Source of the DNA: Squalus acanthias
Lineage: Eukaryota
NCBI GenBank assembly: GCA_030390025.1
Contig: CM059435.1
Location: 48,980,001-49,044,000, forward strand
Direction: 5' to 3'
DNA length: 64,000 bases
Notes under the pieces: generated by a model
The model's database searches: none
What the model was told of the DNA's origin: nothing
What the model saw: only the letters and a program-made list of their open reading frames with translations
Part shown: positions 3,745-44,796 of the stretch, piece after piece
How the letters are laid out: the number at the start of each line of letters is the position of its first letter
Position numbering within the stretch: the first letter of the stretch is position 1
Program-made: the position numbers and the translations under genes

Positions 3745-4270
3745 CCTTTTACTGGCCTGTTTATAATGTTCCTTACTGGTACGTTAGGACAGTTTCTAAC
3801 AGTACTTACTGGCACTTTACTGGCCAGTTTCTAATGATACTTGCAGACACTTTGCAGGCAAGTTTCTAAGTGTAACTACAGGTATTGCACTAACCATTTT
3901 CTAACAATATAGAATTTTAGCCAATGCCTAACAGTATCTTTAAAATTTTACTAACAGTACCTACAGCTAGTTACTAGACTGATTCTGAAAGTACTTGCAG
4001 GTATTTTACGGACCAGTTTCTAACAGTGTATACAGGTACGTTACTGGCCTGTAACTAACTGTACTTATGGGGAATTACTGAACAGTATCTGACAGTATGT
4101 AAAACTATTTTATTGGCCAGTTTCTAACAGTACTTACAGGTATTTACTGTACATATTCTAATACTACTTACAAGTATATTACTGACCAGTAAAAAACACA
4201 ACTGTTTACTGGACAGATTCTACTAGTGCCCACACGTATTTACTGGACAGTTTCTATCAGGACTTATAGG
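3745..4270. repeat. Degenerate ~35-bp tandem repeat (approximate consensus tttactggccagtttctaacagtacttacaggta)
   Basis: 'ttcta' recurs at 3794, 3829, 3864 and 3899 (35-bp spacing) and at 4122/4156. Confidence 0.75.
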
Positions 4271-4595: not shown

Positions 4596-4657
4596 GGTGT
4601 TGTGCGACCTCTCAATTTTGTCCACCCCAGTCCAACACCGGCATCTCCGCATCATGA
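4596..4657 (+). mobile_element. 3' end/tail fragment of the Penelope-like hammerhead element family
   Basis: ggtgttgtgcgacctctcaattttgtccaccccagtccaacaccggcatctccgcatca matches the 3' ends at ~11967-12025, ~26280-26338 and ~44506-44562. Confidence 0.8.
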
Positions 4658-6070
4658 CCTTTGAGATTAGCATGGTGTTTACCGACCAAATGCTGTTCTT
4701 TCGACTGATTTAATTATCTCCATTCAGAAAGTGCTATTGTCTGTTGCTGCAATGCTCAGATACAGTAATAAGAATTCACTCGGATATCAGCCACTGAATG
4801 GTCATTGCCAGATTTAACTAGAAAAAAGTACCTAAATCTATATTTCAAACACGATCTTTAAGATATATATATGGAGATTAGTTATAGAATTGTGTTTGAA
4901 GTATATATTTCTGCTTCCTTTAGTCAGTCCTATAACGTGCTAGGTGTTGTAGTTACTTTTTAAAAATCTCTTATTAATTGAGAGCGATACTAAAATGAAT
5001 GGGATTTTTGTATTGTGCCATTTCCTGCTGTACCAACGAACAAGGCAGGTCTCAACCATCTGTCTTGTCTCTCACTGTCGGTGTTGTGGGGGGAAGGAGA
5101 AAGGGAGGGAGCCTGGTATTTATAGACTCACTACTTGCACCGCCGCTAACAGTGACTCGCGTGTTTAAATTCATAGCATTAACTTACTTTTCTCAAATGA
5201 TGCTGGCTGTTAGGTCGCAGTTTTAACTAAATGCAAAAAAAAAGAGTAATATGCAAAATACCAACTCCCTCGCTTTAAATTTCATCCATATAGGACTTTA
5301 TGCTAAGTCATTTATAAAAGTGTTGGCGCATCATTTAAAAGTGAAATGCATTACTTTTGAATCTGTTTTCATTCGATGGTTTACTTGTTACCGGATGCCA
5401 AGATCATTTCACACCGGCTTCTTGTCACGTCCTTTGCTGAAATGCAGCAGACATATCTGATATATCCTTCGCAAACGATCAGGACAAGCTTAAATCCGTT
5501 CTCCTTGCCTGCCCCAAAAAGTTGACCCGGGTTTCATGTCTGTGAATTAGATATCCGACTATATTAGCTATCAGTTCCTAGCTGAATTTACAGTCTGTGT
5601 AACGAATGAAATGAGTTGTATGAGATGTTGACCAAAATGCTGTGATGTGGAATCACCGAGGACGGGTATTCTGAATGGAGAACATTGCCACTCATCTTAG
5701 TTTCAATCGTCAATAATTAATAAAAAGATCACCAGTCGGTATTTACTGCCTCCATTTTTTCTATTTGCCTGAGGATTTTACAACAAAAAACATCTGCATT
5801 GCAGTATTTTCGTATTTTATCCCCGCTGAAAGGTTTAATTCCCTTTTTGAAAATAAGCCTGATGTAATCTATTGTAAAATGGGATTGGTTAATATAAACA
5901 TCTGCTCGAAGGAGTTGGGGGAAAGAAAATTGGAGGCAGTAAAGGGTCCGCAAGGAGCTTGTCAAAGCAGAACTATTTTGCTCACCCTTACTTCCCAGCT
6001 GCCTTTCAGCAACAGCTTTTGTACTGAGACTGAGTTTTTCTGGTGAAACACCCACTTTGTTTGATGAGTG

Positions 6071-6583
6071 CAATGGGAACTATTGGGACTATGGACAATG
6101 GGAACTATTGGGACTATGGACAATGGGAACTATTGGGACTATGGACAATGGGAACTATTGGGACTATGGGCAATGGGAACTATTGGGACTATGGACAATG
6201 GGAACTATTGGGACTATGGGCAATGGGAACTATTGGGACTATGGGCAATGGGAACTATTGGGACTATGGACAATGGGAACTATTGGGACTATGGGCAATG
6301 GGAACTATTGGGACTATGGGCAATGGGAACTATTGGGACTATGGACAATGGGAACTATTGGGACTATGGGCAATGGGAACTATTGGGACTATGGGCAATG
6401 GGAACTATTGGGACTATGGGCAATGGGAACTATTGGGACTATGGGCAATGGGAACTATTGGGACTATGGACAATGGGAACTATTGGGACTATGGGCAATG
6501 GGAACTATTGGGACTATGGGCAATGGGAACTATTGGGACTATGGGCAATGGGAACTATTGGGCCTATGGACATTGGGAACTAT
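6071..6583. repeat. Homogeneous 25-bp minisatellite, ~20.5 copies of caatgggaactattgggactatgg(a/g)
   Basis: Read directly. Units differ almost only at the last base. Confidence 0.97.
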
Positions 6584-8269: not shown

Positions 8270-9980
8270 GAAGACCACCTGGTGGGAGTGGACATGACTA
8301 TTTCTAATCATGGTGGGACCAAAGGCCAGTGCCCTTTCATAGGTTGGGAATACAATTACTTTCCCTTCATACTATGGAACTCAAATCATTGTTTCTTCAT
8401 TGAGTGGCACAGGGCATATTATTGTTTAAAAAAATGGAATTAGAATTCTTATTCCTTCATAGGCTTGGACCAGATATTACTATTCCTTGACAAGGTTGTA
8501 CTGGAATCATTATTCCTTCATTGGGTGGGTCTAGAATTACTATTCCTTCATAAAGAGATACTAGAATGACTATACCTCGATAGATTGGAACTAGAATCAC
8601 TATTAATTTCAATAAGTGTGACCAGAGTATTTCTTCATGTCCCTAGATATTACTATTGCTTCATAGCATTCATTCATAGGGTTGGGCTAGATTCTCCATT
8701 TCTTCATAGGGTGGAACTAGAATTATTATTCCTTCAGAGTGGGATTGGAATCAATATTTCTTCACATGGTGGGACCAGAATAACATAGATACTTCTGTTT
8801 CATATCGTAGGATTGGAATCTTTGTTCTGTCTTAGCATTAGGATGGGAATCACTGTTCCTTCATAGGGTGGAATTGAATGTTACTATTCCTTTCTAGGTG
8901 GGACTAGAATCAGCATTCCTTCATACAGTGGGAATAGAATTATCATCCTTTCATAGAGTGGCATTCGCTATTACTAATGCTTCATATGGTGTGATACAAA
9001 TCACTATACCTTCATTGAGTGGAAGTAGAATGACTATTCCTTCATGGGGTAGGAGTAGAATCACTATCCCTTCATAGGGTTGAACTAGATATCACACTTT
9101 CTAAGATAGGAATAGAATCACTGTTTCTTATTGGGATGGAGCTAGAAACACAATGGCCTGAATTTTGTAGTCAGCGGCGAAGGAACAGTGCTTGCCGTTG
9201 ACCTCGAAAAAAGCTGCCCACCAAGTTTCAATGGGCTCTAAAGCACAGACTTCCTCTACAAGGGGATCTGTGGCATCCAGCAATAGGGCAGGCAGCAGGT
9301 AGAATGATCAACCAATCAGACTAAAGAATTCTCACAGACGGCAAAGCAGGAAGTAAAAAGCAGGGAATATAGATCAAATTTAAATTATTGTACAGAAAGC
9401 AAAATAAAGACTGGAACATACACATGGGATTAAGTGAGACTTTAAAAAATATATATATATATTTAAAAATCTGCAACTTTTAAATTTTCTTCTGAGGGAA
9501 TGAAACTCCACATTTGTAAAATTAGTTTTTCAGGGACAGAGAGGTTGTTCAGCAGTAATTATTAATTAATACGCCATTAAAAACTCAGTTACTCCTGATT
9601 GAACAAGGCTTAACCTTTTCATTGGGCTTTACAGTGAGAATAGTGGGTAATTAGTTTAAGTACATGACAAATCAGTGATTTCTATGTTGATTCTATCTGC
9701 GAGGACTGCAGCAGCGTACCCTGTGAAGGAGTAGGGTATCTCTGACAGTCATAAATTGCTGTCAGTTTTACCCAGTAATAACGGCGAGCGCTGACAGCCT
9801 CGCCGTTATTACTACCACAAATTCGGGACCATTTTCTTCATTGAGTAGCACTATTTCTTCAAAGGCTAGAACTGAAATCACCATTCATCATATGGGGGGA
9901 CTAGAATAATTCTTCCTTGATAGGGTAGGACTGAAATCATTATTCTTTCATGGGATAGGACTATAATCATTACTTCTTCA
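8270..9980. repeat. Degenerate ~30-32-bp tandem satellite (approximately tattccttcatagggtgggactagaatcac), interrupted by a MITE-like element; units resume at ~10880-10975 and ~14177-14207
   Basis: Recurring 'ttccttcatagggtggga-ctagaatca' units. Confidence 0.8.
9152..9833. mobile_element. Non-autonomous DNA transposon/MITE-like insertion with imperfect TIRs and subterminal hairpins
   Basis: Left end aatggcctgaattttgtagt resembles the reverse complement of the right end, aatggtcccgaatttgtggtagt. It interrupts the satellite. There is a perfect 15-bp stem at 9774-9788/9799-9813. Confidence 0.55.
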
Positions 9981-11860: not shown

Positions 11861-12025
11861 CAGCTTTCGGAGCTGCTGCTCCTTTGTCAGGTGAAGACTT
11901 CACTTGACGAAGGAGCAGCAGCTCCGAAAGCTTGTGATTTCAAATAAAACTGTTGGACTATAACCTGGTGTTGTGCGACTTCTCACTTTTGTCCACCCCA
12001 GTCCAACACCGGCATCTCCGCATCA
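11861..12025 (+). mobile_element. Penelope-like short palindromic insertion (hammerhead-bearing) nested in CR1
   Basis: TSD (ca)gggtaaagta at 11849-11860 and 12024-12035. Inverted arms 11862-11896 and 11898-11932, then the ~41-nt tail. Both hammerhead cores carry a substitution. Confidence 0.8.
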
Positions 12026-12485: not shown

Positions 12486-12584
12486 TATGAGAAGTCGCAC
12501 AACACCAGGTTATAGTCCCAACAGTTTTATTTGAAATCACAAGCTTTCGGAGCGCTGCTCCTTCGTCAGGTGAAGTCACACGAC
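12486..12584 (-). mobile_element. Penelope-like short insertion (single arm) nested in CR1
   Basis: 12-bp TSD acactaaatgag at 12474-12485 and 12585-12596; same family sequence in - orientation. Confidence 0.8.
12537..12573 (-). ncRNA. Minimal type I hammerhead ribozyme motif
   Basis: UCAC-CUGACGA-A-GGAGC(AGC)GCUCC-GAAA-GCUU-GUGA: core boxes, stem II, stem I (UCAC/GUGA) and a palindromic AGCU in place of stem III. Confidence 0.7.
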
Positions 12585-16569: not shown

Positions 16570-17159
16570 CTAACTACCTTGCATCAGATCTTCCCTCAAG
16601 TAATATTTCAGACTGTCCATCAAAGTGTTATTGAATAAATCTAAACCAACATCAGATAAGTAATCTCCTCTACCAACATAAAGAGCTTGACGCTTGATGT
16701 CAAAATAAGGGTGTTCTATGAATCTTTGACCCTTGTATTCCATGTATTGTTTTATTACCCCATTCACAGTTTTCCTAACATGCTCAAGTAGAGCACCAGG
16801 CTGAAAAGCCCATTTAGGACGTGGGAGTAACTCTGAACACACCAATACAGTATCTGGTAATAGGCCTTCCAGTGCTCCCAGCACCTCTTTTGCCATGTAC
16901 ATTATATCACTACCCTGGGTGAAGCCTATCTCATTATCTCCCAAATGAATGAGCAGGTACTTTGGGGGCTGGTGTTGTGCCAGGTGATGCATTAACAGGT
17001 CATGGAGCTGGTGCCATCTCAGGTCAGGTGTGCTCAGCCAATGAACTGAAAAACCACGTTTATCAAGGCCAAGATTGATCCCGTACGGTTTGTTGACTGC
17101 TCTGTCACGTGCCTGGCTGATGATCACATGTCCTGCTATCCACACAGTATTCTGGGTGT
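16570..17159 (-). CDS. Intact SGNH-hydrolase-like domain exon, candidate alternative last exon of NCOA5
   Basis: Acceptor ttatttatgtttcag|AC (phase 1). 196 uninterrupted codons with VWIAGHV, GINLGL..VHW, PKYLLIHLGDNEI, VLVCSELLPRPKW and GRGDYLSDVGLDLFN. AATAAA on - at 16267-16272 and 15929-15934. Confidence 0.65.
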
Positions 17160-20069
17160 CTGAAACATAAATAATACCCTGTTGAGCCAGAAGGAATAAA
17201 AGGATGTATTGCCTCACTGCTTTACCAGAAAAGGGATACAAGAGGCTTATGTGCAATTATATCATTGCTTTGGTCATCACGTGCAAGACATAGGCCATTG
17301 CACGCGACTGGTCTTCTAGCAACGTACATGATAAAGATAAATCTCCCAAACAAGCAAGCTTAGTTGGGAATCACTTATCCTTAGATCATGAGGGGACACC
17401 ATTACAGGTAGCAATGCAGCAGCGCCATTTAGTTTCTCCTCCCCTTCCTCAAACACAATTCAGCTTCTTCATTCCTCCCTGTCCAACCCCAAATAAAATA
17501 AAAGGGATCACAAGGGGAAGCTGACATTACAGTTTGTGCCTTCATTGTCCTATAATTGACACCATCATCTCCACCCTCATCTGATCTTGTTTTCCTTTTC
17601 TAAGGATCAAGCACTCATAACAAGCAGAGGCAGACTGATGTTCCCTCTACTCTGCCACATATCCTGAAACTCTCAAGCTCAGAACACCCATTTATGCACA
17701 AATATGAATCTCAGTTCCAATCCAAGCCAAACTGAACAGCCTTGCATCATAAGCATTTCTGTGCTGTACAATTACATCTAAAGAAACAGAGTTGGTGTAA
17801 ATGACAGCCCTAAAGACTTGAGGCCTCCATTTCACACATAGCCATTACAGACAGCGAAAGACTTAGTTTAGGACTGATTCACATCTAGATCACAGATGGA
17901 AATAACCATGCATAGATTACATACGATGTCACTAGACATATTTACTATATCAATACTAATAAACTAAGGGGGAAAAACAAACTATTGTTGCACCAATTCT
18001 CAATCCATTGGTTCCAATTGCTCCCTGTACCACATTAAATTCTACTGAAATCAGTTAGGGAAAATGCCTACCACACCCATTTGAAAAATTTCACATGGCT
18101 ACAATTACACTTTACTCAAAACTTAAAGACAGTAATATAGCTAGTTGCCTTCTTTGTTCAACAATGGCATGTGGCTGGGAAAGGGAAGTAAAAACAGTCA
18201 GGTAATGGAGAAAAAGACAATTACCAGTTAATGCTCAAGTAATGTGCAAACTACCTGGTGACAAAAACACATCTAGCCATCACCATTTAAAAGCTGGTAG
18301 ACAATTGTAGTCTTTCTGGTCATCTTGATCATGACTGTACACTAGATTGCACAGTGGTCAATAGGACCAGTGATATATGCACTTACATCTGTCATCCTCT
18401 GCACCATGAAACTCTTGCTCTTGGCTGATCTACTGCAAGGAAGGAAAACCAATCACATTGGACCATTCTCATGTACTGTACAAATTGAGAAAAGCCAGGG
18501 AATTTATTTAAAAAAAAACAGGTGTTGATTCAGCCAAATTAATCCAGGTAATCTGAAGACTCCATAGCAGATAATCTTACCAGACTGTTGCACTGTACAA
18601 TTGTTAAACTAGTTAGCCTCAACAGTTTGTAATCAGACAACTTCACTTCCATTATTTGTGCAGAATTCAGATGTAACTACTTTTTTTTGTTGCAGATTTA
18701 CAGATTGTATGACTGTTCAAATGGGCTCAGCTCTAATACATCAAGGTTTTTCCAATTTAATAAAGCAGCCTTCTTTATTTCATCCTCAAACTTCTATTCT
18801 ATTTAAAAAGGACAGAGATAAAAGTACCAGTCTAGATCCCCACCCTAACTTCTCCATGGTTGGCCTCGAGTATATTGTTCACAACTTGTACTTGGGTAGA
18901 CACATCCCCTCGAAACCCCATCTTTCCAATGTTACTGCAATGAAAGTTCACAACTCCATTGCTGTCAATTTCAAGCATTTCAGCAATACCTCAGTTTCAA
19001 AAGAGGTTGATTAAAAAAAAAAATTCAAACAGACTCTCCCACACTAATTTCTGCTGCTGCAATTCTCTCGTCACTGCTCGAAATTCAACCTCACTCATCA
19101 ACCTTTCTTGTACAGATTTCAGCAGTGAAAACAGTTCATTTTAGTCTGACTGGAATGATTCCCAAAGAGTTGCCACTGGATTTCTGCCACCCACCTTTGC
19201 TCAGGTTTTGGACTCATGAAAACCTTGACTGTTACCATTACTCTTGTAACTTCCTACCTATCCATAGTATATATACACACACAACCAAAGGGGGAAAATG
19301 GAAGAGAAACCTTTATTCTTTACAAACCAGATGAAAGTAGTGACTCAAACATTGAACTACCAAGAAATATACAACAGCCACCATTCCACAACTGCAAATG
19401 GCACTGGCTACAAATTAAGCATGTAAAACACTTGCTCACAGCTGCAGAGGGTGTACACAACAAGAAAAAGGGGATCACAAATGTAACAGAAAACCATAAA
19501 ACTTACAAAAGTCAATTTTACAGAACCGTAATGACAATGACAAAACCTGTCTGGCCTAGGATCTAAATTATAAAAGAAAAAAGTGACAAAACATTAAAAT
19601 ATAAAAACTTGTTTACTTTAGTAAGAGGTCTGCTATCCTGGATTTTAGTTACATTTTTAGAAATATCCATTTAAAAACACTGGATTCAGACTGCAGCATC
19701 ATGCTTTAATACACAAAATCATCTGGTTAACATTTCAATTTTTTTTATTTTAAAAGATCAAAGTCAACATAAACCAAGTGATTGCGATTAAGGCCTTGTT
19801 CATGAACAAACGTAGTTTTTTTTATATACAGTTACAAGATAAATTCAGAGTGCCTTTATAAAAAGTTTCTCATTACCTGGTTACTGTAAAATCATAACTG
19901 ACTTTTTAAACACACCTGAACCCAACAGTAACCAATGTTTGAATGAAGCACTCTTTCGATAACCTACATTTGTTTATGAAACCTTAACAGGTGGCCTTAA
20001 AGGAGTTCAATGGGTGTGCTGACTGCTCTTCCTTAAGGGCAACTCCCTCCCCTCCCCCTCACCCCAGGC

Positions 20070-26133: not shown

Positions 26134-26340
26134 CGAGAAGTCGCACAACACCAGGTTATAGTCCAACAGTTTTATTTAAAATTACGAGCTTTCGGAGCTG
26201 CTGCCCCTTCGTCAGGTAGAGGCAGGGGCAGCAGCTCCGAAAGCTCGTAATTTTAAATAAAACTGTTGGACTATAACCTGGTGTTGTGCGACTTCTCATT
26301 TTTGTCCACCCCAGTCCAACACCGGCATCTCCGCATCATG
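26134..26340. mobile_element. Penelope-like palindromic insertion, variant subfamily
   Basis: TSD-like atcctagaa at 26122-26130 and 26341-26349. Perfect 74-bp inverted arms 26135-26208 and 26224-26297, plus tail. Confidence 0.82.
26183..26218 (-). ncRNA. Minimal hammerhead ribozyme motif (variant)
   Basis: UAC-CUGACGA-A-GGGGC(AGCA)GCUCC-GAAA-GCUC-GUA. Confidence 0.68.
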
Positions 26341-29300
26341 ATCCTAGAAATCAATCTAGTGAACCTTCGTTGCACCCCTTCTAAGGCAAGTATATCCTTC
26401 CTTTAGGCAAGGAGACAGTACTCAAGGTGTGGTCTCACCAAAGTCTTATATAATTGCAGCAAGACTTCCTTACTCTTGTACTCCAACTCCCTTGCAATAA
26501 AGGCTAACATACCATTTTCCTTCATAATTGCTTGCTACACCTGCACTTTAACTTTGTGATTCGTGTACAAGGACCACCAAATCCTTCTGAATACCAACAT
26601 TTACTAGTCTTACCTTTTAAAAGAATATTCTGCTTTTCGATTCTGCCCATCAAGGTGGCTAATTTTTCACATCCACATATAGGATTACATATGATATACA
26701 GCACAGAAACAGGCTATTCAGCCGAACCAGCCCATGCCGGCGTTTATGCTCCACTTGCGCCTCCTCCAGTCTTTCCTCATCTAACTATCAGCTTACTCTA
26801 TTCCCTTCTCCCTCATATGCTTATCTAACCTCTCCTTAAATGCATCCATACTATTTGCCTCAACTACTCCGAGGTAGCGAGTTCCACATTCTCACCAGTC
26901 TCTGGGTAAAGAAGTTTCTTCTAAATTCCCTATTTGATTTTTTGGTGACTATCTTACATTGATGGCCCTTTTTACTCCATCTGCCTTCTTCTTGCCCAAC
27001 CACTTAACTGGTCTATATCCTTTTGCAATCTCTCTGCGTCCTCCTCAGAGCTTACTTTCCCACCTAGCTTTGTATCAGCAGCAAACCTGGATATATTACA
27101 CTCGGTCCCCTTATCCAAGTCACTGATATAGATAGTAAATAGAGGCCCAAGCACCGATCCTTGCGGCACTCCACTAGTTAAACCCTGCCACCCCTGCTAT
27201 TCCTACTCTTTTCTGTCCAGTAACCAATCCTCAATCCATGCGAATATATTATCCCCAAACCCATGAGCCCTAATCTTATGCAACAATCTCTTGTGTGGCA
27301 CCTTATCGAATGCCTTCTGAAAATCCAAATATACTACACCCACTCGTTCCCCCTCATTTATCCTGCTAGTTACATCCACAATAAACTCCAATAGATTTGT
27401 CAAACACGATTTCCCTTTCACACAACCGTGATGACTCTGCCTAATCAGTGATTTTCCAAATACTGTACACTGTTACCACATCCTTAATAGGAACTTTCTA
27501 TTGTGGGAAAACAACCATGGAGAAGTGGGAAAACCAACCATGGAGAAATACACACACTCAAGGGGCTTCACAGTCAGTGTTCTTTGTTGAAAGGCATTTC
27601 CAGTAGCTATGTTTTGTCGGTGGCCCAAAATTCAGACATTTAGCAGTTTACATCCAAGTCTATTGTGCAATGCTGCTAAGGAGAGATTTTTTGTTGACTG
27701 ATGAGAAATGGAGCCCATACCCAGGAAATTTCTCAAATTTACATGGAGTCCAGGATTGACAAGTGCACAACAACTGCCACATTTTATATATTAGTAACCC
27801 TGCCAAAGAGGTTAAGTTTCAGTTAGAGCTGCCAGTGCAAATTGTGCTAAGTATTCAACTGCACCAGGCAAGCTATACAGTAAGAGTACACTGGGGCAGA
27901 GGCACACCAGTTAACACCTGGTCTGCAGACTGACCCAGCCTTGGGGGGGGTGGTGGGGGGAAAAGAGAAGAGACAGTAAATAGCTACATCAGCAATTATA
28001 TGTACCAGACATGAAGGTTTCCAAAAGCTCCCAGCAGTTGACCCCCCTATATACCTAAAGAAAAACTCCAAAGGCAGGTGGCAATTGGAACATTAAGCAT
28101 CCACGAATATAGGATGCAAGAGTAGCCAGTTAGTACAAGAATAAATGCTGGCACATAGTGCTCAATCCCAAACATGGGGAAAAAGAGTGTTTTGCAACAC
28201 GCATCACAAAATCAGAACCCACTACAGGCAGAGAAAACAGAACTGATGCTAAATCGAAGGTAAGTGCTATATAGATTCGATAGGAAGAGTCAGTCAAGAT
28301 GTCCCACAAGAGAAACCATTGCCTTTGTAACTTGCCCTCGTCAATCTGGAGTTTAGTTTCTATTGCTGCAATGACAAAAACAAAAAAACTGCACTTTACC
28401 CCTCCCTTTAATATAGATTTTTAATTGGTATTTAACTATCCCTGGTCGGCAGCAGCATGCCCCAAAAGCAGTACCATAGAACCCTATTATAGTGCAACGA
28501 GAAAACAATGAGGCACTGTTAAGAAATATCATAAATTAGTCCCCTAAAAATCGATGGCTCTAGCTAAATAAGCAGCCTAATGCTTTTTGTTTTGACCAAG
28601 GCATAATGTCCAATATAGACTGAAGCACGAAGAGCACTCTAAGCTCACCGCAATGTGATGCTTCCAGGATACAGGTAAACCCCAAGTTTCTGGAATAGGA
28701 CAGGCTATAAACAGCTATCCAAATGGCAGAGTTGTGGGGTATACAATACTAATGAATTCTAAGCTTTCCTTTCATTTTGTACCTCTTTTCCCATTACAAG
28801 CCACTTCAAAAGATCAGCCATTTGGAACACCATCAAAATTTTCAATTTTGTGGAGTCTACAGTATTAATGGCTTATTGGTCCTATGCCAAATTGTGCTGT
28901 AACAGGTGGTGCAGTTCTTCAGAGTACAAATACACATAGCATAAGAGTGGAAAGAGATTTGATTCTCCTCACCAAAAGGAGTTCCTAATTTCAACCAGAA
29001 GGGGGAGGAGAAGAGAAAGGCAGGGAAATCATTCACAGGTGGCAGTTGTGTAGCTCAAACTGCTTTTCCTGCATCAGAGCACACTGCCAGAGCTGGTGGA
29101 TAATAAGAACTGGGGGAAATAACTTAATTTAACTAAATCTGTAAAATAACCAATTTCAACAAAAAATTACAAGTCAATGTAGACTCCTAACTCTAGACTC
29201 CAACAAGTTCCTCCTAATAGAGTGCGAAGTATTCCAGAGGAATTCTATATATATTTAGTACGATCACAAAGCAGTTAAAAATAGTTTGTGTATGTTCGAT

Positions 29301-29419
29301 CAGGCAAAGCAGAAAGATTACAAAGACAGCCGTCCTCGCGAATATTCTAATTCAATTTTACCTATGTTTTCCTCGTCGATATAAAAATTGAAATTGAAGT
29401 ACTTATCCAACAGCACAAA

Positions 29420-29590
29420 ACAGATTATCTAGACATCACATTGCTGTTTGTGGGACCTTGCTTGCAGAAATTGGCTGCCATGTTTCCTACATTACAATGG
29501 TGACTACACTTCAAAAGTACTTCATTGGCTGTAAAGCACTTTGGGACATCCTGAGGTCATGGAAAGGTGCTATATAAATACAAGCATTTT
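29420..29590 (+). mobile_element. SINE 3' half (same family as 32200 and 35470)
   Basis: cattgctgtttgtggga...cttcaaaagtacttcattggctgtaaagcactttggga...tgctatataaatacaag is shared with the other copies. Confidence 0.8.
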
Positions 29591-32199: not shown

Positions 32200-32605
32200 G
32201 GTGTCCACCTTGGCTCAGTGGTAGCACTCTTAGTCTGAAAGTTATGGGTTAGTGCTCCACTCCAGAAACTTGAGCACATAATCTAGGCTTTTACTTTAGT
32301 GCAGTACTAAGCGAGTGCTGCACTGTCAAGGTGCAGTCTTTCAGATAGTACGTTAAATGTCTTCCCTCTCCAGTGGATGTAAAAAAAATCCCATGGCACT
32401 ATTCAATGAGGAGCAGGGGACTTTCCCTATCCTGGTGAACATTTATCCTTCCAACCATTATCTCACTGCTGTTTGCAGACTGTTGGCTTCCATATTTTCC
32501 AACATTACAACAGTAGCTACAATTCAAAAGTACTTCATTGGCTATGAAACACTCTGGGATATCTGCAGGTCATGATAGATGCTATACAAACATGATTTTT
32601 CTTTT
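32200..32605 (+). mobile_element. tRNA-derived SINE (Deu-domain/SacSINE1-like), decayed
   Basis: A-box tggctcagtggtag, a degenerate B-box, and body and tail shared with 35470-35917. Confidence 0.75.
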
Positions 32606-35469
32606 CTTCATATTATCCCAACAATGGCAAACACGTTCAGACACAAATGAGGCCTGAACATGGGACTTATCTGCAAGTGACATTAAGTAGAGGATCCAAC
32701 AACACAAAGTTCATCAACTATATGCTACAGTAAGAGTGAAGTTGCAGTTTTGAACTATAAAAGCTGGAGATCAAGAACACATGGGCTCAAATGGCTGACT
32801 TTAGTTTGCTCAGAACCAAATTTAGTTTGCATGCTGTAACTTAAATGACCACACCTTCCAGGGCCCTTCATGGAAGTGAAACACTGAGGTGCTTTCCCTA
32901 TGGCCCTACCCAAGGATGGTTAGAAGACTGAAGTAAGAACCTTGAGGAAGCCCAGTGCATCAAACCAGAGTACTGAAGTTGAGACACTAGTATACAACGC
33001 ATTTCTGCTCGTCTTGCATACTTTAAAGTATATGTTTTCTGAAGGCAGGTAGTCACTATTGACTGCTAACAACTCTAGGCTGGGCTCTCAATAGCCATAC
33101 CAAATAGAAATCCTGCAGGCTACCCAGCTTGTTTAATTGGCTCCAATGGTTCACTTTATATGGGACCTTGTAAAAGTTACTGATGCACTTGGCTAGCAGG
33201 TCAAAGTAACTGATCCTCCTGGCCCAGTAATGCATTCCTTTCCAAATAACAATGAGAGGGAACAAGAGAAGCTGTATACAACAGCACAGCATCAAAATTA
33301 GGTGAAAAGATTGAGTCTAAAACAGATACATTCTTAAAAAGCCCACAGTATTTACTTGGAACATTGTCAAAACTCAAAAATAAACAAGGGGCTTAATATG
33401 GAACATTAAGCTAATGACAACCCACTTTACGTCTGTAATACGGATGATAAAATTACACTATTTACAGTATTTTTGGTCTCAAGTACATACTCATAACAGA
33501 AATACCTTTTATTACAGGAATAGATATTACACCTTCGCCAACTACATGAGCCTTTGTAGAACATGGCTCCACCAGTGCATCTTTAAAGGGAATGGTCTTG
33601 TAACTGCTCCATGGCCAACCACAATTACACGCAAGGTAAATAACCTTTGCAGCAAGGTGATTCTGAACCAATATGATTCCACCTGCAATATTACTCATGC
33701 GGAGACACTCAACTGGGAGAAAATTCACTTCTTTTCATATAAAAAGGCACTGATAGCAAACGATTATTCTGTTGTTGCAAATCACAGACAATGGAAGTGA
33801 ATATAACATACAAGGCATGTGGGGGGGGGGGGGAGAATCATCGGTGTGGAAGAGGGTACAAGACAACAGAAATTACCTTATGCAAAGGGTGCGTGTAGGA
33901 GGTAGCTGAGCAATCATTGCAGAAAAAGCAAGTTATTAAATTCCCTGGCAATGTCTTATAGACACTTCCTTATTGACCATGTTTGGGGTTTGCTACGAAC
34001 TGCTCGGCTAAAATAAAAAATGAATCACTTTGACCGTGTTAGAAGTGCAAGCAAAAGCTACCGACACGGGGGGACTTCAACCAGGCATACATAAACTGGG
34101 AACACAAGTGGGAAGGATGCTGAGCTCATCAAAATAGCATATGATTGCTCCCTAACCCAGGTGCCGCAGGAGGCCCACGAGAAACAAATCTCTTCCAGAT
34201 CCACTTATTATGCAAATTAGAAATAGCTGAACTGTTAGACAATTATAACAGCAGGACAATTTCTGGCTTGGGAAACAGTGCAGCAATGGAACAAGAACCG
34301 AGAGATATGGGGAGGTGGTAAAAGCAGTTTTAAAAAGTTTGTATGGAGAGAGAAGAGGCTGACCATTGGACCAAGTACAAGATTGTACAGCAACAAATCG
34401 GAGAGATTAGGGGTACCAAAAGAAAACTGGAAAAGGTTATTGCTGCAGGAGCAAAACATGAACGCTAAAAAATTCTTACAATAGCATTAACAGCAAGAGG
34501 GTAATCAGGGAAAAACACGATAGTTGACATGCTAATTGACTGCATGGAGGGTTTATTAAACCAGGGAAGACACATCCAACATCAAACAAACAATCAGTTG
34601 TGTCCAAGACTTTGACATTAACAAAACAGAGGTTGTCAGGTGGTGATGTTACAACAGACAAACGTAGTTCCTTATACAAGAACGGTAACTGTATCTAATA
34701 GCTACAAACCAACTCTCCTGACCTCAATTGGAAAATTACATAACCAAAATGGAAGAGCACCTCTGAAAATAACCAGTGTATGCATGATGTGAACTACCAA
34801 TAGACCATGGACTCAAAAGGCAGCTGAGATCTTATGGGTTCATCAGTGGAAACTAGAAAAATGCACAATGGAAGCAAAGAAGAATGCACTCCAGTGGCAG
34901 ATAGAGCTCACCAATGGGGAAGTTAAAGGCCCATGGGTGTTAGTCACTCAGCACGTCTAAACCAGTATTGTCCAATAGAAATTGCCGACTAGCCAGTGAC
35001 AGTTTTAGCCACATGCACCAATTTTAGTAGAAAACCCCTTACGCACACGGAATACAGGTAAATGTATTCACGTGCATATTTATTTAAATATCTAACACCA
35101 TTCAGTAACGAAGGAAGTAAACCATTGCACGATTACAAACCACTCACGCATAGCTTTTCATCTGGCCATTTCACCAACAAATGGCACAAAAGGGTTAAGT
35201 ACACATGCATATGCCATGTAAATGAGTATGAGACTACGTGCCCAACGACTGTGCCTATTACTCTTATTTACTAGTCAGAAATACAATTATCCACACCTGG
35301 ATTCCTATTTTGCCATGCGTGACTAGTTGCTAATGTTTTTGGACAACATGGGCCTAAACATTAGGATATTAAAGTAAATAACAACTTGTATTTGTATAGC
35401 GCATTTAATGTAGTAGAACATCCCAAGGCGCTTCACAGGAGAGTTATAAAACTAAACAACTAACTAAAG

Positions 35470-35917
35470 GAAGGCTTGCATTTATACCGCGCCTTCCACA
35501 ACCACCGGACGCCTCAAAGCACTTTACAGCCAATGAAGTATTTTTTTTTGAAGTGTAGCCACTGTTGTAATGTAGGAAATGCGGCAGCCAATTTGCGCAC
35601 GGCAAGCTCCCTCAAACAGCAATGTGATAACCAGATAATCTGTTTTTGTTATGTTGACTGAGGGATAAATATTGGCCAGGACACTGGGGATAACTCCCCT
35701 GCTCTTCTTCGAAATAGTGCCGTGGGATCTTTTACATTCAAATGAGAGCAGATGGGGTCTTTTATGTCTCATCTGAAAGATGGTACCTCCGACAGTGTAG
35801 CACTCACTCAGTACTGCACTGCAGTGTCAGCCTAGATTTTGTGTTCAAGTCTCGAGTGGGACTTGAACCCACAATCTTCTGACTTCGAGGCACTACCAAC
35901 TGCGCCACAGCTGACAC
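35470..35917 (-). mobile_element. Near full-length tRNA-derived SINE (Deu-domain/SacSINE1-like)
   Basis: The - strand head gtgtcagctgTGGCGCAGTTGG...GGTTCAAGTCC contains A and B boxes; the tail ..tataaatgcaag resembles the L2 tail. Confidence 0.82.
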
Positions 35918-36020
35918 TGAAATTAGGGCAGATGACCAAAAAGAGTGGTCAAAGAGTTAGGTTTTAAGGAGGAAAGAGAGGTAGAAAGAGGTTTAAGGAG
36001 GAAATTCCAGAGCCTAGGGC

Positions 36021-36250
36021 CCCAGTGTCCTGGCCAATATTTATCCCTCAATCAACATAACAAAAACAGATTATCTGGTCATTATCACATTGCTGTTTGA
36101 GGGAGCTTGCTGTGCGCAAATTGGCTGCCGCATTTCCTACATTACAACAGTGACTACACTTCAAAAAAGTACTTCATTGGCTGTAAAGTGCTTTGAGGCG
36201 TCCGGTGGTCATGAAAGGTGCTATATAAATGCAAGCCTTCCTTTAGTTAG
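36021..36250 (+). mobile_element. SINE 3' half, inverted relative to 35460-35688
   Basis: Close reverse-complement match, including the terminal ttcctttagttag. Confidence 0.82.
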
Positions 36251-39088
36251 TTAGAGGCAGCTGAAGGCACGGCTGCAAATGGTTGAGCGATCAAAATCAG
36301 GGATGCTCAACAGGCCAGAATTAGAGGAGCGCAGATATCTCGGGGGCTGGAGGAGATTAGAGATGGGAGGGGAGAGATCATGGAGGGATTTGAAAACAAG
36401 GATGATAATTTAAAAAAAAGGCATTGCTTAATCAAGAGACAATATAGGTCAGTGAGCACAGGGGTGATGGATAACAGGACTTGGTACAAGTTAGGACACA
36501 GGCAGCAGAGTTTTGGATGACCTCAAGTTTACGGAGGGTTGACGTGGGAAGCCAGCCAGGAGTGCGTTGGAATAGTCCAGTCTAGAGGTAACAAAGGCAT
36601 GGATGAGGGTTTCAGCAGCGGATGGGCTGAGGCGGGGCAGAGTCGGGCAATGTCACGGAGGTGGAAATAGGCGGTCTTAGTTATGGCACGGATGTGTGTT
36701 CGGAAGTTCATTTCAGCGTCAAACAGGACACCAAGGTTGTGAACAGTCTGATTCAGCCTCAGACAGACACTGGGGAGAGGGATGGAGTCAGTGGCTAGGG
36801 AACGCAGTTTGTGGCAGGGACCGAAGACAATGGCTTCGGTCTTCCCAATATTTAGCTGGAGGAAACTTCTGCTCATCCAGTACTGGATGTCGGACAAGCA
36901 GTCTGACAATTAGAGATAGCGGAGGGGTTGAGAGAAGGTGGTGGTGGTGAGGTAGAGCTGAGTGCCGCCAGCATACCTGTGGAAATGGAAGCTGTGTTTT
37001 TGGATGACGTCACCGAGGGGCAGTATGTAGATGAGAAATAGGAAGGGGCCAAGGATAGATCCTTGGGGGACACCAGAGGTAATGATGCGGGAGCAGGAAG
37101 AGAAGCCGTTGCAGGCGATTCTCTGGCTACGATTAGATAGATAAGAATGGAACCAGGCGCGTGCGGTTCCACCTAGCTGGACGACTGTGGAGCTAACAGG
37201 ATACTAAAGTATCGTGCCACATGAGTTGAATACTGCCACGAGTTGAATTCAAACATCAGATCATGCTGAAGCTGTACCAGAACCAGACTACGGCCACATT
37301 TGATATACTCAGCATGACTGTATAAGCTAGGGCTCTTTAGCCTCAAGTAGTATGTCAGAAGGGGCCTCTGGGAAGTATACAAGACACCACTGGATAAAGT
37401 AGACCCAAAACATTGCTTCTATATACTGCCAGGGCATTAAAACAAGAAAACAATAATTGAGAATTATGAAGGGTGTCTTTTAGGACAGAGGTCAATTAAG
37501 TATTTCTTTGCACAAAGGTGATCAACAGCTAGCAAAGATGTGAAAGGCCAGGAAATTGGGACACATTTAAGAAACATCTAACTGCGGTAGTGGGAAGACA
37601 GCAAGACTGCTATACTAGAAAGAAGAGATCAAATAGGCTGAATGATCTCTCATCTAAACCTACTTTGTGAAGTGTACCACTGGAAGACAGGAAAGACAAA
37701 TGTACAGGTTGCCAGTACCCCATGGGAGTTTGGAGTTGACAAAGAGACTGCAATTTTGTCTAGGCAAAGCACAACTGGAGGTGTAATCAAAAAAAAAAAC
37801 ACAAAACTATAAATTAAACTTGAATAGCTTCAAACTTCAATTAAACTCAATTTACAAAGTCAAGAAGAAACCAAAAGGGGAACACTGAGCAAAGCATCTT
37901 TAAAATACTTGCATTTATATAGAATCTAATGACATCAACACACTTCAAAACTGCAGATTACTAAAGTGCAGTAACTTTAGAGAAAACCAATGGTCCCCAA
38001 ACAGCACCAAAATGAGTAATTAGTCAATCTGTTTTACTAACTATATTGGTTGAGGGAGGAATGCTGGCTAACACACCAGAACACCACTCTTTCAAAAAAA
38101 AAGCCATGGGACACAAAAAGGGTAGAAGAATTAATGCCACATTTGAGACAATACACTGGAGCAGTACCCCGAGCCACAACTTTTGACTCAGTTAAAACAG
38201 TCAAGTTAAGTAACACCGTCTTTTATGGTCGAAGGAAAAAAATCACATAACTGCAAAAAGCAGTTTCTTTTAAAGTAATGATACCAAGTGATTTCTCCCA
38301 ATGGTTGATGACCTACAGTTCTATATGGCAGTGTTATCCAATCCATTAGCCATATGTAGCTAATTGGGAATCCAGATTTGGGATATTTCATTTCTGATTA
38401 GTTAGGTAAAAAAAATGAATTGACATTGATGGGAATGTTATCTCAAAACTCATTTGTCGTGTTTACCTTTTTGTTCATTTGTTAGTAAAATGGTAACACT
38501 GAAAGCAGAATGAGTGTTTTGATAATTTGAGTGCTTTATTTCCTTGGTTACTGAATGGTGGTAGATGTTGGTTAAGTAAATATACATATATGAATACATT
38601 TACATGTATTTTGAGAGTGCATGTGGTTAAAACTGTCGCTGTGGCTAGCCAGTGATTTTTACTGGATAGCATTGCTATCTGGTGTGCAAGCCTGAAATGA
38701 AGAATGACAATTGGCTAGCATGGTCTAATTTAATATATTCTAATTAATGTATGAAATTTCTGTACAATAAACCATGACTGCAAGGTTCCAATTTGCTTTG
38801 ATTAGTTCAGTAACCAAACTGCAAAATCAAACAGAACACAAGCACAAGTTTTAATGTCACTGACCATGATCCTCAGTATGTTCCAATTATTCATTTTAGG
38901 GCTCGCTCCGTGTAAATACCCAGTGACCCGGAACCTTGAGAAATTTCGCCCAGTCTGTGCGGTGTGTCTGTATCCCGGGATGTAACTGGACAACAGGGGA
39001 GACTGGCACCCTTCATAAAACCAACAGATTTAAGCATCTAAAACATGTCTTTTTTGGGGCTGCAAAGGTGAATACTTGAGTGAGTTGT

Positions 39089-39160
39089 GTAATGGTGGTG
39101 CAGTGGTAAGCATGGTTGCCTTCCAAGCAGATGACCTGGGTTCAATTCCCAGTCATCGCA
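39089..39160 (+). tRNA. tRNA-Gly(TCC)-like sequence, probably a retrocopy/pseudogene, at the 5' end of a CR1
   Basis: 72 nt, GTAATGGTGGTGCAGTGGTAAGCATGGTTGCCTTCCAAGCAGATGACCTGGGTTCAATTCCCAGTCATCGCA, aligning end to end with vertebrate tRNA-Gly-TCC. Changes are consistent with CpG decay and disrupt the acceptor stem. No oligo-T terminator follows. Confidence 0.8.
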
Positions 39161-42990: not shown

Positions 42991-44132
42991 GAAGAGTATT
43001 AGACTTCAGGAAGACAGACAGGCTAGTGAAATGGGCAGACGAAATTTAACGCAGAAAAGTGTGAAGTGATACAATTTGGTAGAAAGAATGAGGAGAGGAC
43101 ATATAAACGAAATGGTACAATCCTGAAGGGGGTGCACGAACAGGGAAACCTGGGGTATGTGTGCACAAATCGTTGAATGTGGCAGGGCAGGTTGAGAAAG
43201 AAGTTCTTACAGGATCCTGGACTTCATAAAGAGAGGTAAAGAGTACAAAAGTGTGGAAATTATGATGAACCTGTATAAAACACTGGTTCGGCCACAACTG
43301 GAGTACTATGTCCAATTCTGGGCACCACACTTAAGGAAGGATGTGAAGGCCTTAGAGAGGGTGCAGAAAAGATTTACGAGAATGATTCCAGGAATGAGGG
43401 ATTTCAGTTATGTTGATAGACTGGAGAAGCTGGGGTTGTTCTCCTTGGAGCAGAGAAGATTGAGGAGATTTGATAGAGGTGGTCAAAATCATGAGGGGTC
43501 TGGACAGAGTAGCTAGAAGGAAACTGTTCTCATTGACAGAAGGGCCGAGAACCAGAGGACACAGATTTAAGGCAATTGGCAAAAGAACCAAAGGCAACGC
43601 AAGAAAACTTTTTTACGCAGCGAGTGGTTAAGATCTGGAATGCACTGCCTGAAAGGATGGTGGAGGCAGATTCAATCACAGCTTTCAAAAGGGAGTTGGA
43701 TAAGTATCTAAAGGAAAGAAATTTGCAGGGCTACGGATAAAGGGCGGGGGAGTGGGACTAGCTGAAGTGCTCTTGCAGAGAGCCGGCACGGGCTCAATGA
43801 TCCGAATGGCCTTCTTCCGTGCTGTAACCATTTTATGATTCTACGACCGGTATTCACGGGTAAAATTTAAATCATGTTAAGAGCCTGTCTCCCCCCCACC
43901 CCAAGACTGCAAAGTTACTGCCTTGGCATTTTTCCTCTCCCACATAAAGGGATTGACATCTTATGACTGACAGTTTGACAGACTTTATGGCATGTAAACA
44001 CCAGTTTTAATAAGATGTTATTGCCTGTAGGATGTTTAAAATCTCGAACTGGATGTTGCCACATCTGTTTCTGCCCAAAATAAATGGGAAGTCGCACAAC
44101 ACCAGGTTATAGTCCAACAGCTTTATTTGAAA

Positions 44133-44169
44133 TCACAAGCTTTCGGAGCGCTGCTCCTTCGTCAGGTGA
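44133..44169 (-). ncRNA. Minimal hammerhead ribozyme motif (left arm; NCOA5 sense strand)
   Basis: The reverse complement reads UCAC-CUGACGA-A-GGAGC(AGC)GCUCC-GAAA-GCUU-GUGA. Confidence 0.7.
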
Positions 44170-44439
44170 AGTGAAGAAATACATATGGGCACAACATATA
44201 TAGTCAGAGAACACTGCCAGACGACTACAGTTAATCTTTCTAACTGCCCTTTATCACACCTCGGCAGAGAGACAATCACGGCAATCAAAGGTGTGGATGG
44301 TGTCCACACCATCCACACCTTTGATTGCCGTGATTATCACACCTCGGCAGAGAGACAAAGGGCAGTTAGAAAGATTAACTGTAGTCGTCTGGCAGTGTTC
44401 TCTGACTATATATGCTGTGCCCATATGTATTTCTTCACT

Positions 44440-44476
44440 TCACCTGACGAAGGAGCAGCGCTCCGAAAGCTTGTGA
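44440..44476 (+). ncRNA. Minimal hammerhead ribozyme motif (right arm)
   Basis: tcac-ctgacga-a-ggagc-agc-gctcc-gaaa-gctt-gtga. Confidence 0.7.
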
Positions 44477-44796
44477 TTTCAAATAAAGCTGTTGGACTAT
44501 AACCTGGTGTTGAGACTTCTCACTTTTGTCCACCCCAGTCCAACACCGGCATCTCCACATCAAAATAAATGGAGCACTTAAGACGCTATAACCAACAACA
44601 TTGAAATAGATATTAATGTAAGTGATTAATAGTTACCACATTTTGCCCGATACAAGTGGCTGCTCGTTTTAAACATGGACGGGGACTATATTGCTACTTC
44701 AGTTTTGGACAAAACTGTGCACACAGATTGCTCTTCTGATTGCTGGAAATAATATTCTATTGCGAGAGAGAAGTAGTCCAAAAGTAATAATTTTAC

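Follow-up and report, generated by a model that had tools for sequence, protein, structure and literature searches.

The five short repeats of a hammerhead-bearing family that lie in the window, by which we mean the whole 64,000-nucleotide stretch of Squalus acanthias DNA analyzed here, are probably integration products of an endonuclease-bearing Penelope-like element (PLE), made of its pseudo-LTR. This assignment to the PLEs is based on the ribozyme and on the anatomy of the insertions. The architecture, with its inverted copy, one-sided tail and palindromic junctions, as well as the minimal hammerhead, has already been published for PLEs, and the family as such is ordinary. What appears to be added here is a TATA box and initiator in the longest copy, together with a clustering of 5' ends at the predicted start of transcription.

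With the plus arm of the copy at 44088 as query, blastn and nhmmer located n=5 insertions comprising 8 arms, including every insertion listed in an earlier note on this DNA. No sixth copy with E<0.006 was found in the 64-kb window, the following nhmmer match having E=2.1. The whole insertions span 60-475 bp and are without a reading frame; we refer to each by its start. Copy 4596 (plus strand; 4596-4654 as a similarity match, about 4596-4659 as a feature) consists of tail only, with neither ribozyme nor target duplication. Copy 11861 (11861-12024, both strands) is a symmetric palindrome with an 11-12-bp exact target duplication, in which both ribozyme cores are mutated. Copy 12486 (12486-12584, minus strand) is a minus arm alone, with a 12-bp duplication and an 8-nt filler. 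Copy 26134 (26135-26342, both strands) is an asymmetric palindrome of a variant subfamily, the first base of its plus arm being equivalent to 44451; its target duplication is 9 bp if exact and 12-13 bp if one lost base is allowed. Thus three of the five insertions (11861, 26134 and 44088) are palindromic as had been claimed, each containing an inverted, 5'-truncated, head-to-head copy, and four of the five carry exact or near-exact duplications in agreement with the 9-12 bp proposed earlier. Exact matches of at least 9 bp were found between only 7 of 2000 random pairs of positions. The target sites of the shark insertions are AT-rich. Nesting within older LINEs is demonstrated for three of the five copies, 11861, 12486 and 26134. 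The LINE hosts encode RT and AP-endonuclease domains, and we take them to be CR1. The proposal of recent activity is acceptable in the sense that the family is younger than the LINE remnants in which it sits; the term is a relative one, and the sequence occurs in runs coded as five organisms.

Copy 44088 (44088-44561, both strands) is a palindrome of 216-nt arms around a 2-nt spacer at its symmetric centre (44304-44305). Its left target-site duplication (44076-44087, 11-12 bp) is matched by a right partner (44561-44572), the first two bases of which also fit the end of the element. The inverted arm (44088-44303, minus strand) has a tail-less outer end at 44088, an intact hammerhead core at 44133-44169 (minus strand) and a mirror TATA/initiator at 44202/44172. 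The direct arm with its tail, delimited by similarity search and arm alignment, occupies 44306-44561 on the plus strand; an AATAAA can be read from the sequence at 44482-44487 (plus strand). Two termini are defined on this strand: end site 1 (44514-44521), which is the stop point of the tail-less arms, and end site 2, which is reached after a 40-nt tail (44522-44561) and beyond which other copies extend by up to about five bases. The tail is within or at the published 30-40-bp PLE range. It is present on 4/4 plus arms, as reported, although as a rule this only reflects orientation. Each of the five insertions points the same way, with its tail end on the right, whereas the LINE hosts are found on both strands; this represents either a 1-in-16 chance or an insertion bias. 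The corresponding statement for the minus arms, that they end at gacttc(tca), is correct for three of four; the minus arm of copy 11861 ends at a third place, one base short of the predicted ribozyme cut. End site 1 was considered as a poly(A) site, with AATAAA about 35 nt upstream, and was set aside because poly(A) was found at none of the insertion junctions. In other copies and in contigs the element end runs on into ATG (44559-44566, 26336-26342, 4652-4659), which may be the start codon of a PLE frame.

Public contigs were compared using copy 44088 as the reference, which has a 2-base deletion at 44513. At least half of the sampled words were carried by 18 of the 20 runs listed, representing five organism codes and one uncoded run; runs X19 and X20, with a small share, did not enter the comparison. 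In four runs, from three coded organisms, the contigs with the repeat numbered 6109, 892, 1224 and 1443, and 112, 10, 23 and 29 contigs, respectively, pass from the element into dissimilar flanks shortly after 44562, within a few bases (agreement 0.38-0.51). The tail end is therefore a family-wide terminus.

The plus arm of copy 44088 contains a predicted minimal type I hammerhead at 44440-44476, supported by a descriptor match, the core alignment and the published consensus. In the standard numbering scheme, a 4-bp helix I (44440-43/44473-76) is followed by C3 at 44444, an extra A between 9 and 10.1 at 44451, a 5-bp helix II (44452-56/44460-64) and a palindromic AGCU without loop 3 (44468-71), and the predicted cut is at 44472/44473, all on the plus strand. 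Both the extra base at 9/10.1 and the G10.1-C11.1 pair are present, as the PLE consensus demands. A descriptor for minimal hammerheads gave 4 matches in the window, all of them within the family, whereas 60 Markov control windows contained none. An Rfam search did not match the hammerhead at the gathering score, and the matches from an E-value scan were discarded as hairpin look-alikes of the palindrome. The core had been described as shared by the copies; it is intact (CUGANGA-H ... GAAA-N-N-U-H) in 4/8 arms, among them those at 12537-12573 in copy 12486 and 26183-26218 in the minus arm of copy 26134 (both minus strand). Copy 4596 has no ribozyme, the plus arm of 26134 lacks CUGACGA, and both arms of 11861 are mutated. 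The latter carry C3U and G8A (11904 and 11885), changes that together would make up the U3-A8 core covariation reported for schistosomes but that probably reflect independent decay. In copy 26134 helix I is 3 bp, U-A replaces C-G at one of its pairs, one pair of helix II has become G-U and position 17 is C, all of them changes that preserve the fold. Covariation of the hammerhead helices across copies is suggested by this compensatory pair, which occurs in one of the four intact arms; public contigs also show variation at each of its two positions (44441 and 44475), although unphased. In the same contigs position 17 varies only between U and C, U4C accounts for 14% of the summed depth in one run, and conservation is as high in the DNA downstream of the ribozyme as within it.

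It had also been proposed that the loop-less AGCU of stem III makes dimerization necessary for cleavage. The structural description is accurate, but dimerization is one option only, since an anole PLE ribozyme cleaved only with the element protein. The nearest-neighbour energies predicted for a double hammerhead (-19.1) and for two monomers (-20.0) are similar. A transcript through the palindrome is predicted to form a single long hairpin in which the ribozyme is paired with its own antisense, so that the palindrome cannot provide a tandem dimer; the palindrome as a ribozyme dimer is thus ruled out, the two ribozymes lying on opposite strands and pairing with each other. In these predicted folds, the hammerhead of the palindromic insertions behaves as a passenger.

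Upstream of the ribozyme, TATA and initiator motifs are visible in copy 44088, the longest copy, whose arms reach far enough. Matches to the general consensus patterns place a predicted TATA box (TATAWAWR) at 44407-44414 and a predicted initiator (YYANWYY) at 44435-44441, both on the plus strand, so that +1 would be A44437 with the TATA box at -30. As background, such TATA-initiator pairs occur at 5 sites in 128 kb (both strands). The TATA box lies 20 bp from the TCACT at the ribozyme, which is the same spacing as in the pseudo-LTR of rotifer Pen2a described in PMC3846280. Against the predicted start, Drosophila Penelope is described as having a TATA-less internal promoter. The 5' ends of three of the five insertions fall at 44437-44438, a count that includes copy 26134 on condition that two variant bases are tolerated. 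The arms of copy 11861 begin at 44437 and 44438, the plus arm at the initiator A, and the 5' end of copy 12486 is at 44437 with an extra G in front. The minus arm of 26134 starts at 44438 if the two variant bases are allowed, both of which occur in public contigs, and at 44442 otherwise. With a uniform null, the probability that three of five insertions coincide is P=0.007 for any 3-nt window and P=2e-5 for a fixed window; this null is generous because it ignores 3' bias, and the cluster consists of three insertions and was noticed after the fact. The extra G is a single case with a 1-in-3 chance; at L1 insertion junctions such a base is described as marking full-length or capped 5' ends.

The public contigs provide further, weaker information on this point. 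Among the joint rows listed, 2/7 are at exactly 44437. Eleven pieces had at least 10 unaligned letters on the 5' side, of which 3 were dropped as artefacts of a micro-inversion; 6 of the remaining 8 break at 44432-44438 among the 32 pieces listed (9914 others), which is weak evidence in that the upstream sequence varies, and subfamilies that have diverged in this upstream part could account for such breaks. Summed contig depth climbs past 44437 in 4/4 runs, steeply in three, although depth cannot rank the parts. We slightly favour the interpretation that many of the mini-copies are run-off cDNAs of a capped transcript that were then folded back. In retroviruses the equivalent product is termed strong-stop DNA, and it is somewhat better than an even chance that the mini-copies resemble it, extending from the cap site to an internal priming site of a PLE transcript.

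How might the palindromes arise? The arms within one insertion are nearly identical, as had been noted, differing at 0/73 nt in 26134, 2/35 in 11861 and 2 plus one gap in 216 in 44088 when a micro-inversion is flipped, and 4-8 substitutions separate the arms of 26134 from the five longer ones in the other hammerhead-bearing copies (71-114 nt compared). The palindrome centres are at different places in each copy; two are symmetric to within 1-2 bases, and the third contains a short near-copy of the arm start, which would be the kind of trace left by slippage after hairpin priming. Because the arms share private variants while the centres differ, the palindromes look as though they were built at insertion. 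The micro-inversion in the plus arm of 44088 (44336-44356, 21 nt) is private, the other copies reading as the minus arm, and flipping it reduces 13 arm mismatches to 2. It has 2-base inverted ends, and the same bases then read one way in both arms; this pattern is as expected from a template switch inside a palindrome.

These observations suggest the following scheme. A PLE protein would nick both target strands 9-13 bp apart, in keeping with the duplications observed, and reverse transcription would start at an internal position of the RNA, the tail end, where about 2 bases paired with the target would assist it. The tail end itself is observed; internal priming with target pairing is extrapolated from the anole PLE. 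In PLEs the sites of priming are a short distance downstream of the ribozyme, so that a cDNA primed on a pseudo-LTR heading the transcript would, after about 125 nt of synthesis, run off at the capped 5' end, yielding a mini-copy from the initiator, and priming on a downstream pseudo-LTR would give longer, randomly truncated copies such as 44088. Very probably the inverted arm is made during integration, copied from the same template as the direct arm. As to the manner, snap-back of the cDNA followed by its joining at end site 1 is marginally favoured, as R2 cDNA is described to snap back once full-length synthesis is done (PMC11371274); that the second nicked strand primes at site 1 is possible but less likely. 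Self-priming on an antisense template was instead favoured for PLEs by Arkhipova 2013 (PMC3846280). A candidate stem-loop at the priming sites was not clearly better than shuffled sequences (z -0.9 to -2.2). In this scheme the inserts would derive from uncut RNA, the hammerhead being a genuine ribozyme of the parent element that the inserts cannot use, and the mini-copies, which are without a TATA box, would probably be dead on arrival.

The clustering at 44437 may be explained differently, with the same PLE origin, if the 5' ends are ordinary truncations and the cluster is due to chance or to a hot spot next to helix I, either of stalling or of microhomology. Truncation at the 5' end is usual for PLEs (PMC8557442), two of the five insertions start elsewhere (at the equivalents of 44306 and 44506), and junctions in this place might be promoted by a short direct repeat (44433-44443) and by a possible cDNA hairpin of 4 bp. 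However, the ends coincide with the +1 A of a perfect initiator that has a TATA box at -30, an agreement that is improbable for a fixed window with the uniform null, one copy carries a cap-like G, and a structure should stall the enzyme 3' of itself and not beyond. We therefore regard ordinary truncation as improbable. A further possibility is that the family is an independent non-autonomous element, resembling a retrozyme or a SINE, which is transcribed, cleaves itself and is re-inserted as a short or palindromic copy with PLE enzymes. The short unit is present in very high copy number, to judge from the contig counts given above, no reading frame was found for it, and a preprint (bioRxiv 10.64898/2026.07.22.740005) derives animal retrozymes from PLE pseudo-LTRs and reports them in its one chondrichthyan genome. 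Yet in the window 0/16 tandem-repeat rows overlap a copy, the ribozyme is minimal and not canonical and is predicted to be buried in the palindromic RNA, centres and arm lengths vary from copy to copy, the mini-copies have no TATA box, and none of the window insertions starts at the cut site. The earlier note proposed truncated or non-autonomous ribozyme retroelements; a non-autonomous element mobilized in palindromic form is not supported: the centres differ per copy, tandem arrays are lacking, and the ribozymes on opposite strands pair together. Every testable feature behaves as in a PLE insertion, and both testable retrozyme features are lacking in the window. An independent element of this kind thus appears distinctly unlikely, a little more so than ordinary truncation.

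A related question is whether ribozyme cleavage takes part in integration, with the 5' product serving as a second template. The minus arm of copy 11861 (11862-11896, minus strand) equals 44438-44471 of copy 44088 and so nearly spans the predicted 5' cleavage product, 44437-44472. Variants keep the fold, 44441 and 44475 change together in 26134, and position 17 is restricted to U or C. The arm is one of eight, and the chance of a stop within 2 bases of the cut is roughly 5 in 65, an estimate made after the fact. Among the loose-end rows listed (291 others) there are none at 44471-44472, and for the anole PLE, PMC11167929 reports that reads terminating at the cut were absent and that mutants defective in cleavage inserted normally. 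The minus arm of 11861 provides a weak hint, and a doubtful one, of cleavage in vivo, and participation of cleavage in integration would be very improbable. That run-off mini-copies are made and that some second arms are in addition copied from the 36-nt 5' ribozyme product, both holding jointly, is likewise unlikely. We retain as our preferred interpretation that the insertions are PLE integration products made from uncut RNA.

A reading frame for the PLE was sought in several ways. No PLE RT/GIY-YIG frame was found among 47 of the 127 window ORFs scanned. Viral contigs gave 0 matches to the repeat and a first metagenome scan gave 0; 17 metagenome and 4 prokaryote-genome matches were judged to be due to chance, with only 19-36 bases aligned. 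Two protein searches with read-through translations of the repeat gave nothing at E<=0.01. A further search gave 3 matches, two unrelated and one to a whale-shark gene model (P0005) that ends in a translated sister of the repeat, likely an annotation artefact. No direct tandem pseudo-LTRs were found in the window, and in one public contig the tail end is joined to 44437 with 24 other letters between them. We found neither a shark PLE ribozyme nor start-site run-off in the open literature; Repbase and Dfam were outside this search, and the repeat family may already be catalogued.

The window contains several other features. Two inverted copies of another short repeat, which we presume to be SINE-like, lie at 35458-36252; their similarity is 94% over 235 bases, and relatives occur at 29408-29588 and 32366-32543. 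A tRNA-like match (39089-39160, 50.6 bits) is possibly a SINE head. A 228-codon frame (16570-17256) has a weak match to GDSL esterase (E=2e-4), an enzyme encoded in the first frame of some LINEs. Minisatellites are present at 6070-6583 (25 bp, 20.6 copies, 97%), 8441-9978 (30 bp) and 3748-4190 (35 bp).

The present family offers a test bed for two questions raised in the literature, by what route PLEs acquire their inverted pseudo-LTRs and tails and whether cleavage by the ribozymes of PLEs occurs in vivo, since hundreds to thousands of repeat-bearing contigs per run could discriminate between snap-back and twin priming. If the run-off interpretation is true, many so-called 5'-truncated PLE copies would be complete copies of a short RNA segment. 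If, in addition, some arms derive from the cleavage product, the genome would hold a countable record of the start site, of both priming sites and of minimal-hammerhead cleavage in vivo.

The comparison with known systems favours placing the family among the PLEs and supports the earlier attribution to a pseudo-LTR of this class that bears a minimal type I hammerhead, has one segment inverted and carries its tail on one side. An inverted truncated copy with a 30-40-bp tail has been reported in PLEs (Craig 2021, PMC8557442), as have inverted pseudo-LTRs, 8-10-bp duplications, a 31-bp tail and junction palindromes (Arkhipova 2013, PMC3846280). The shark insertions share with these endonuclease-bearing PLEs the head-to-head inverted copy, the one-sided tail, the short duplications and the palindromic junction, and differ in being frame-less insertions of 60-475 bp with a 40-nt tail and with 5' ends clustered at a predicted start. 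The ribozyme resembles the metazoan PLE minimal hammerheads (Cervera and de la Pena 2014, PMC4209133) in its extra base at 9/10.1, G10.1-C11.1 pair, palindromic 15.2-16.2, 4-bp helix I and U-rich and AU-rich flanks, and its helix I is identical to that of the lamprey motif. Every trait listed in the published consensus is present; the ribozyme differs in a helix II of 5 bp and in having GC, instead of the commoner CG, at 15.2-16.2, although GC occurs in the turtle and schistosome rows. That alignment contains no cartilaginous fish. In the green anole element Poseidon_Ac (Frangieh 2024, PMC11167929) the tail lies between two internal reverse-transcription start sites, cutting and extension take place on both strands, the template is mainly uncut RNA, and the ribozyme cleaved only with the element protein, cleavage being dispensable for insertion. 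The shark family is alike in the two ends bounding a tail downstream of the ribozyme, in its AT-rich targets and in a template that would be uncut RNA. Non-LTR retrozymes (Cervera and de la Pena 2020, PMC7229834; Li et al., bioRxiv 10.64898/2026.07.22.740005) are also short and non-coding, carry a type I hammerhead and are kin to PLE pseudo-LTRs. They are described as head-to-tail repeats of 150-450 bp with a ribozyme in each, a canonical hammerhead with loop 3 and tertiary contacts, and as yielding abundant circular RNA, whereas the shark copies are inverted and not tandem, form no head-to-tail arrays in the window and carry a minimal ribozyme. Finally, R2 snap-back (PMC11371274) and L1 twin priming (PMC11702581) likewise give rise to an inverted segment during target-primed insertion, and R2 snap-back follows full-length cDNA, which is the order of events proposed here. 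The enzymes are different, and L1 inversions take adjacent, largely non-overlapping parts of the RNA (PMC11702581), whereas the two arms of a shark palindrome represent the same part.
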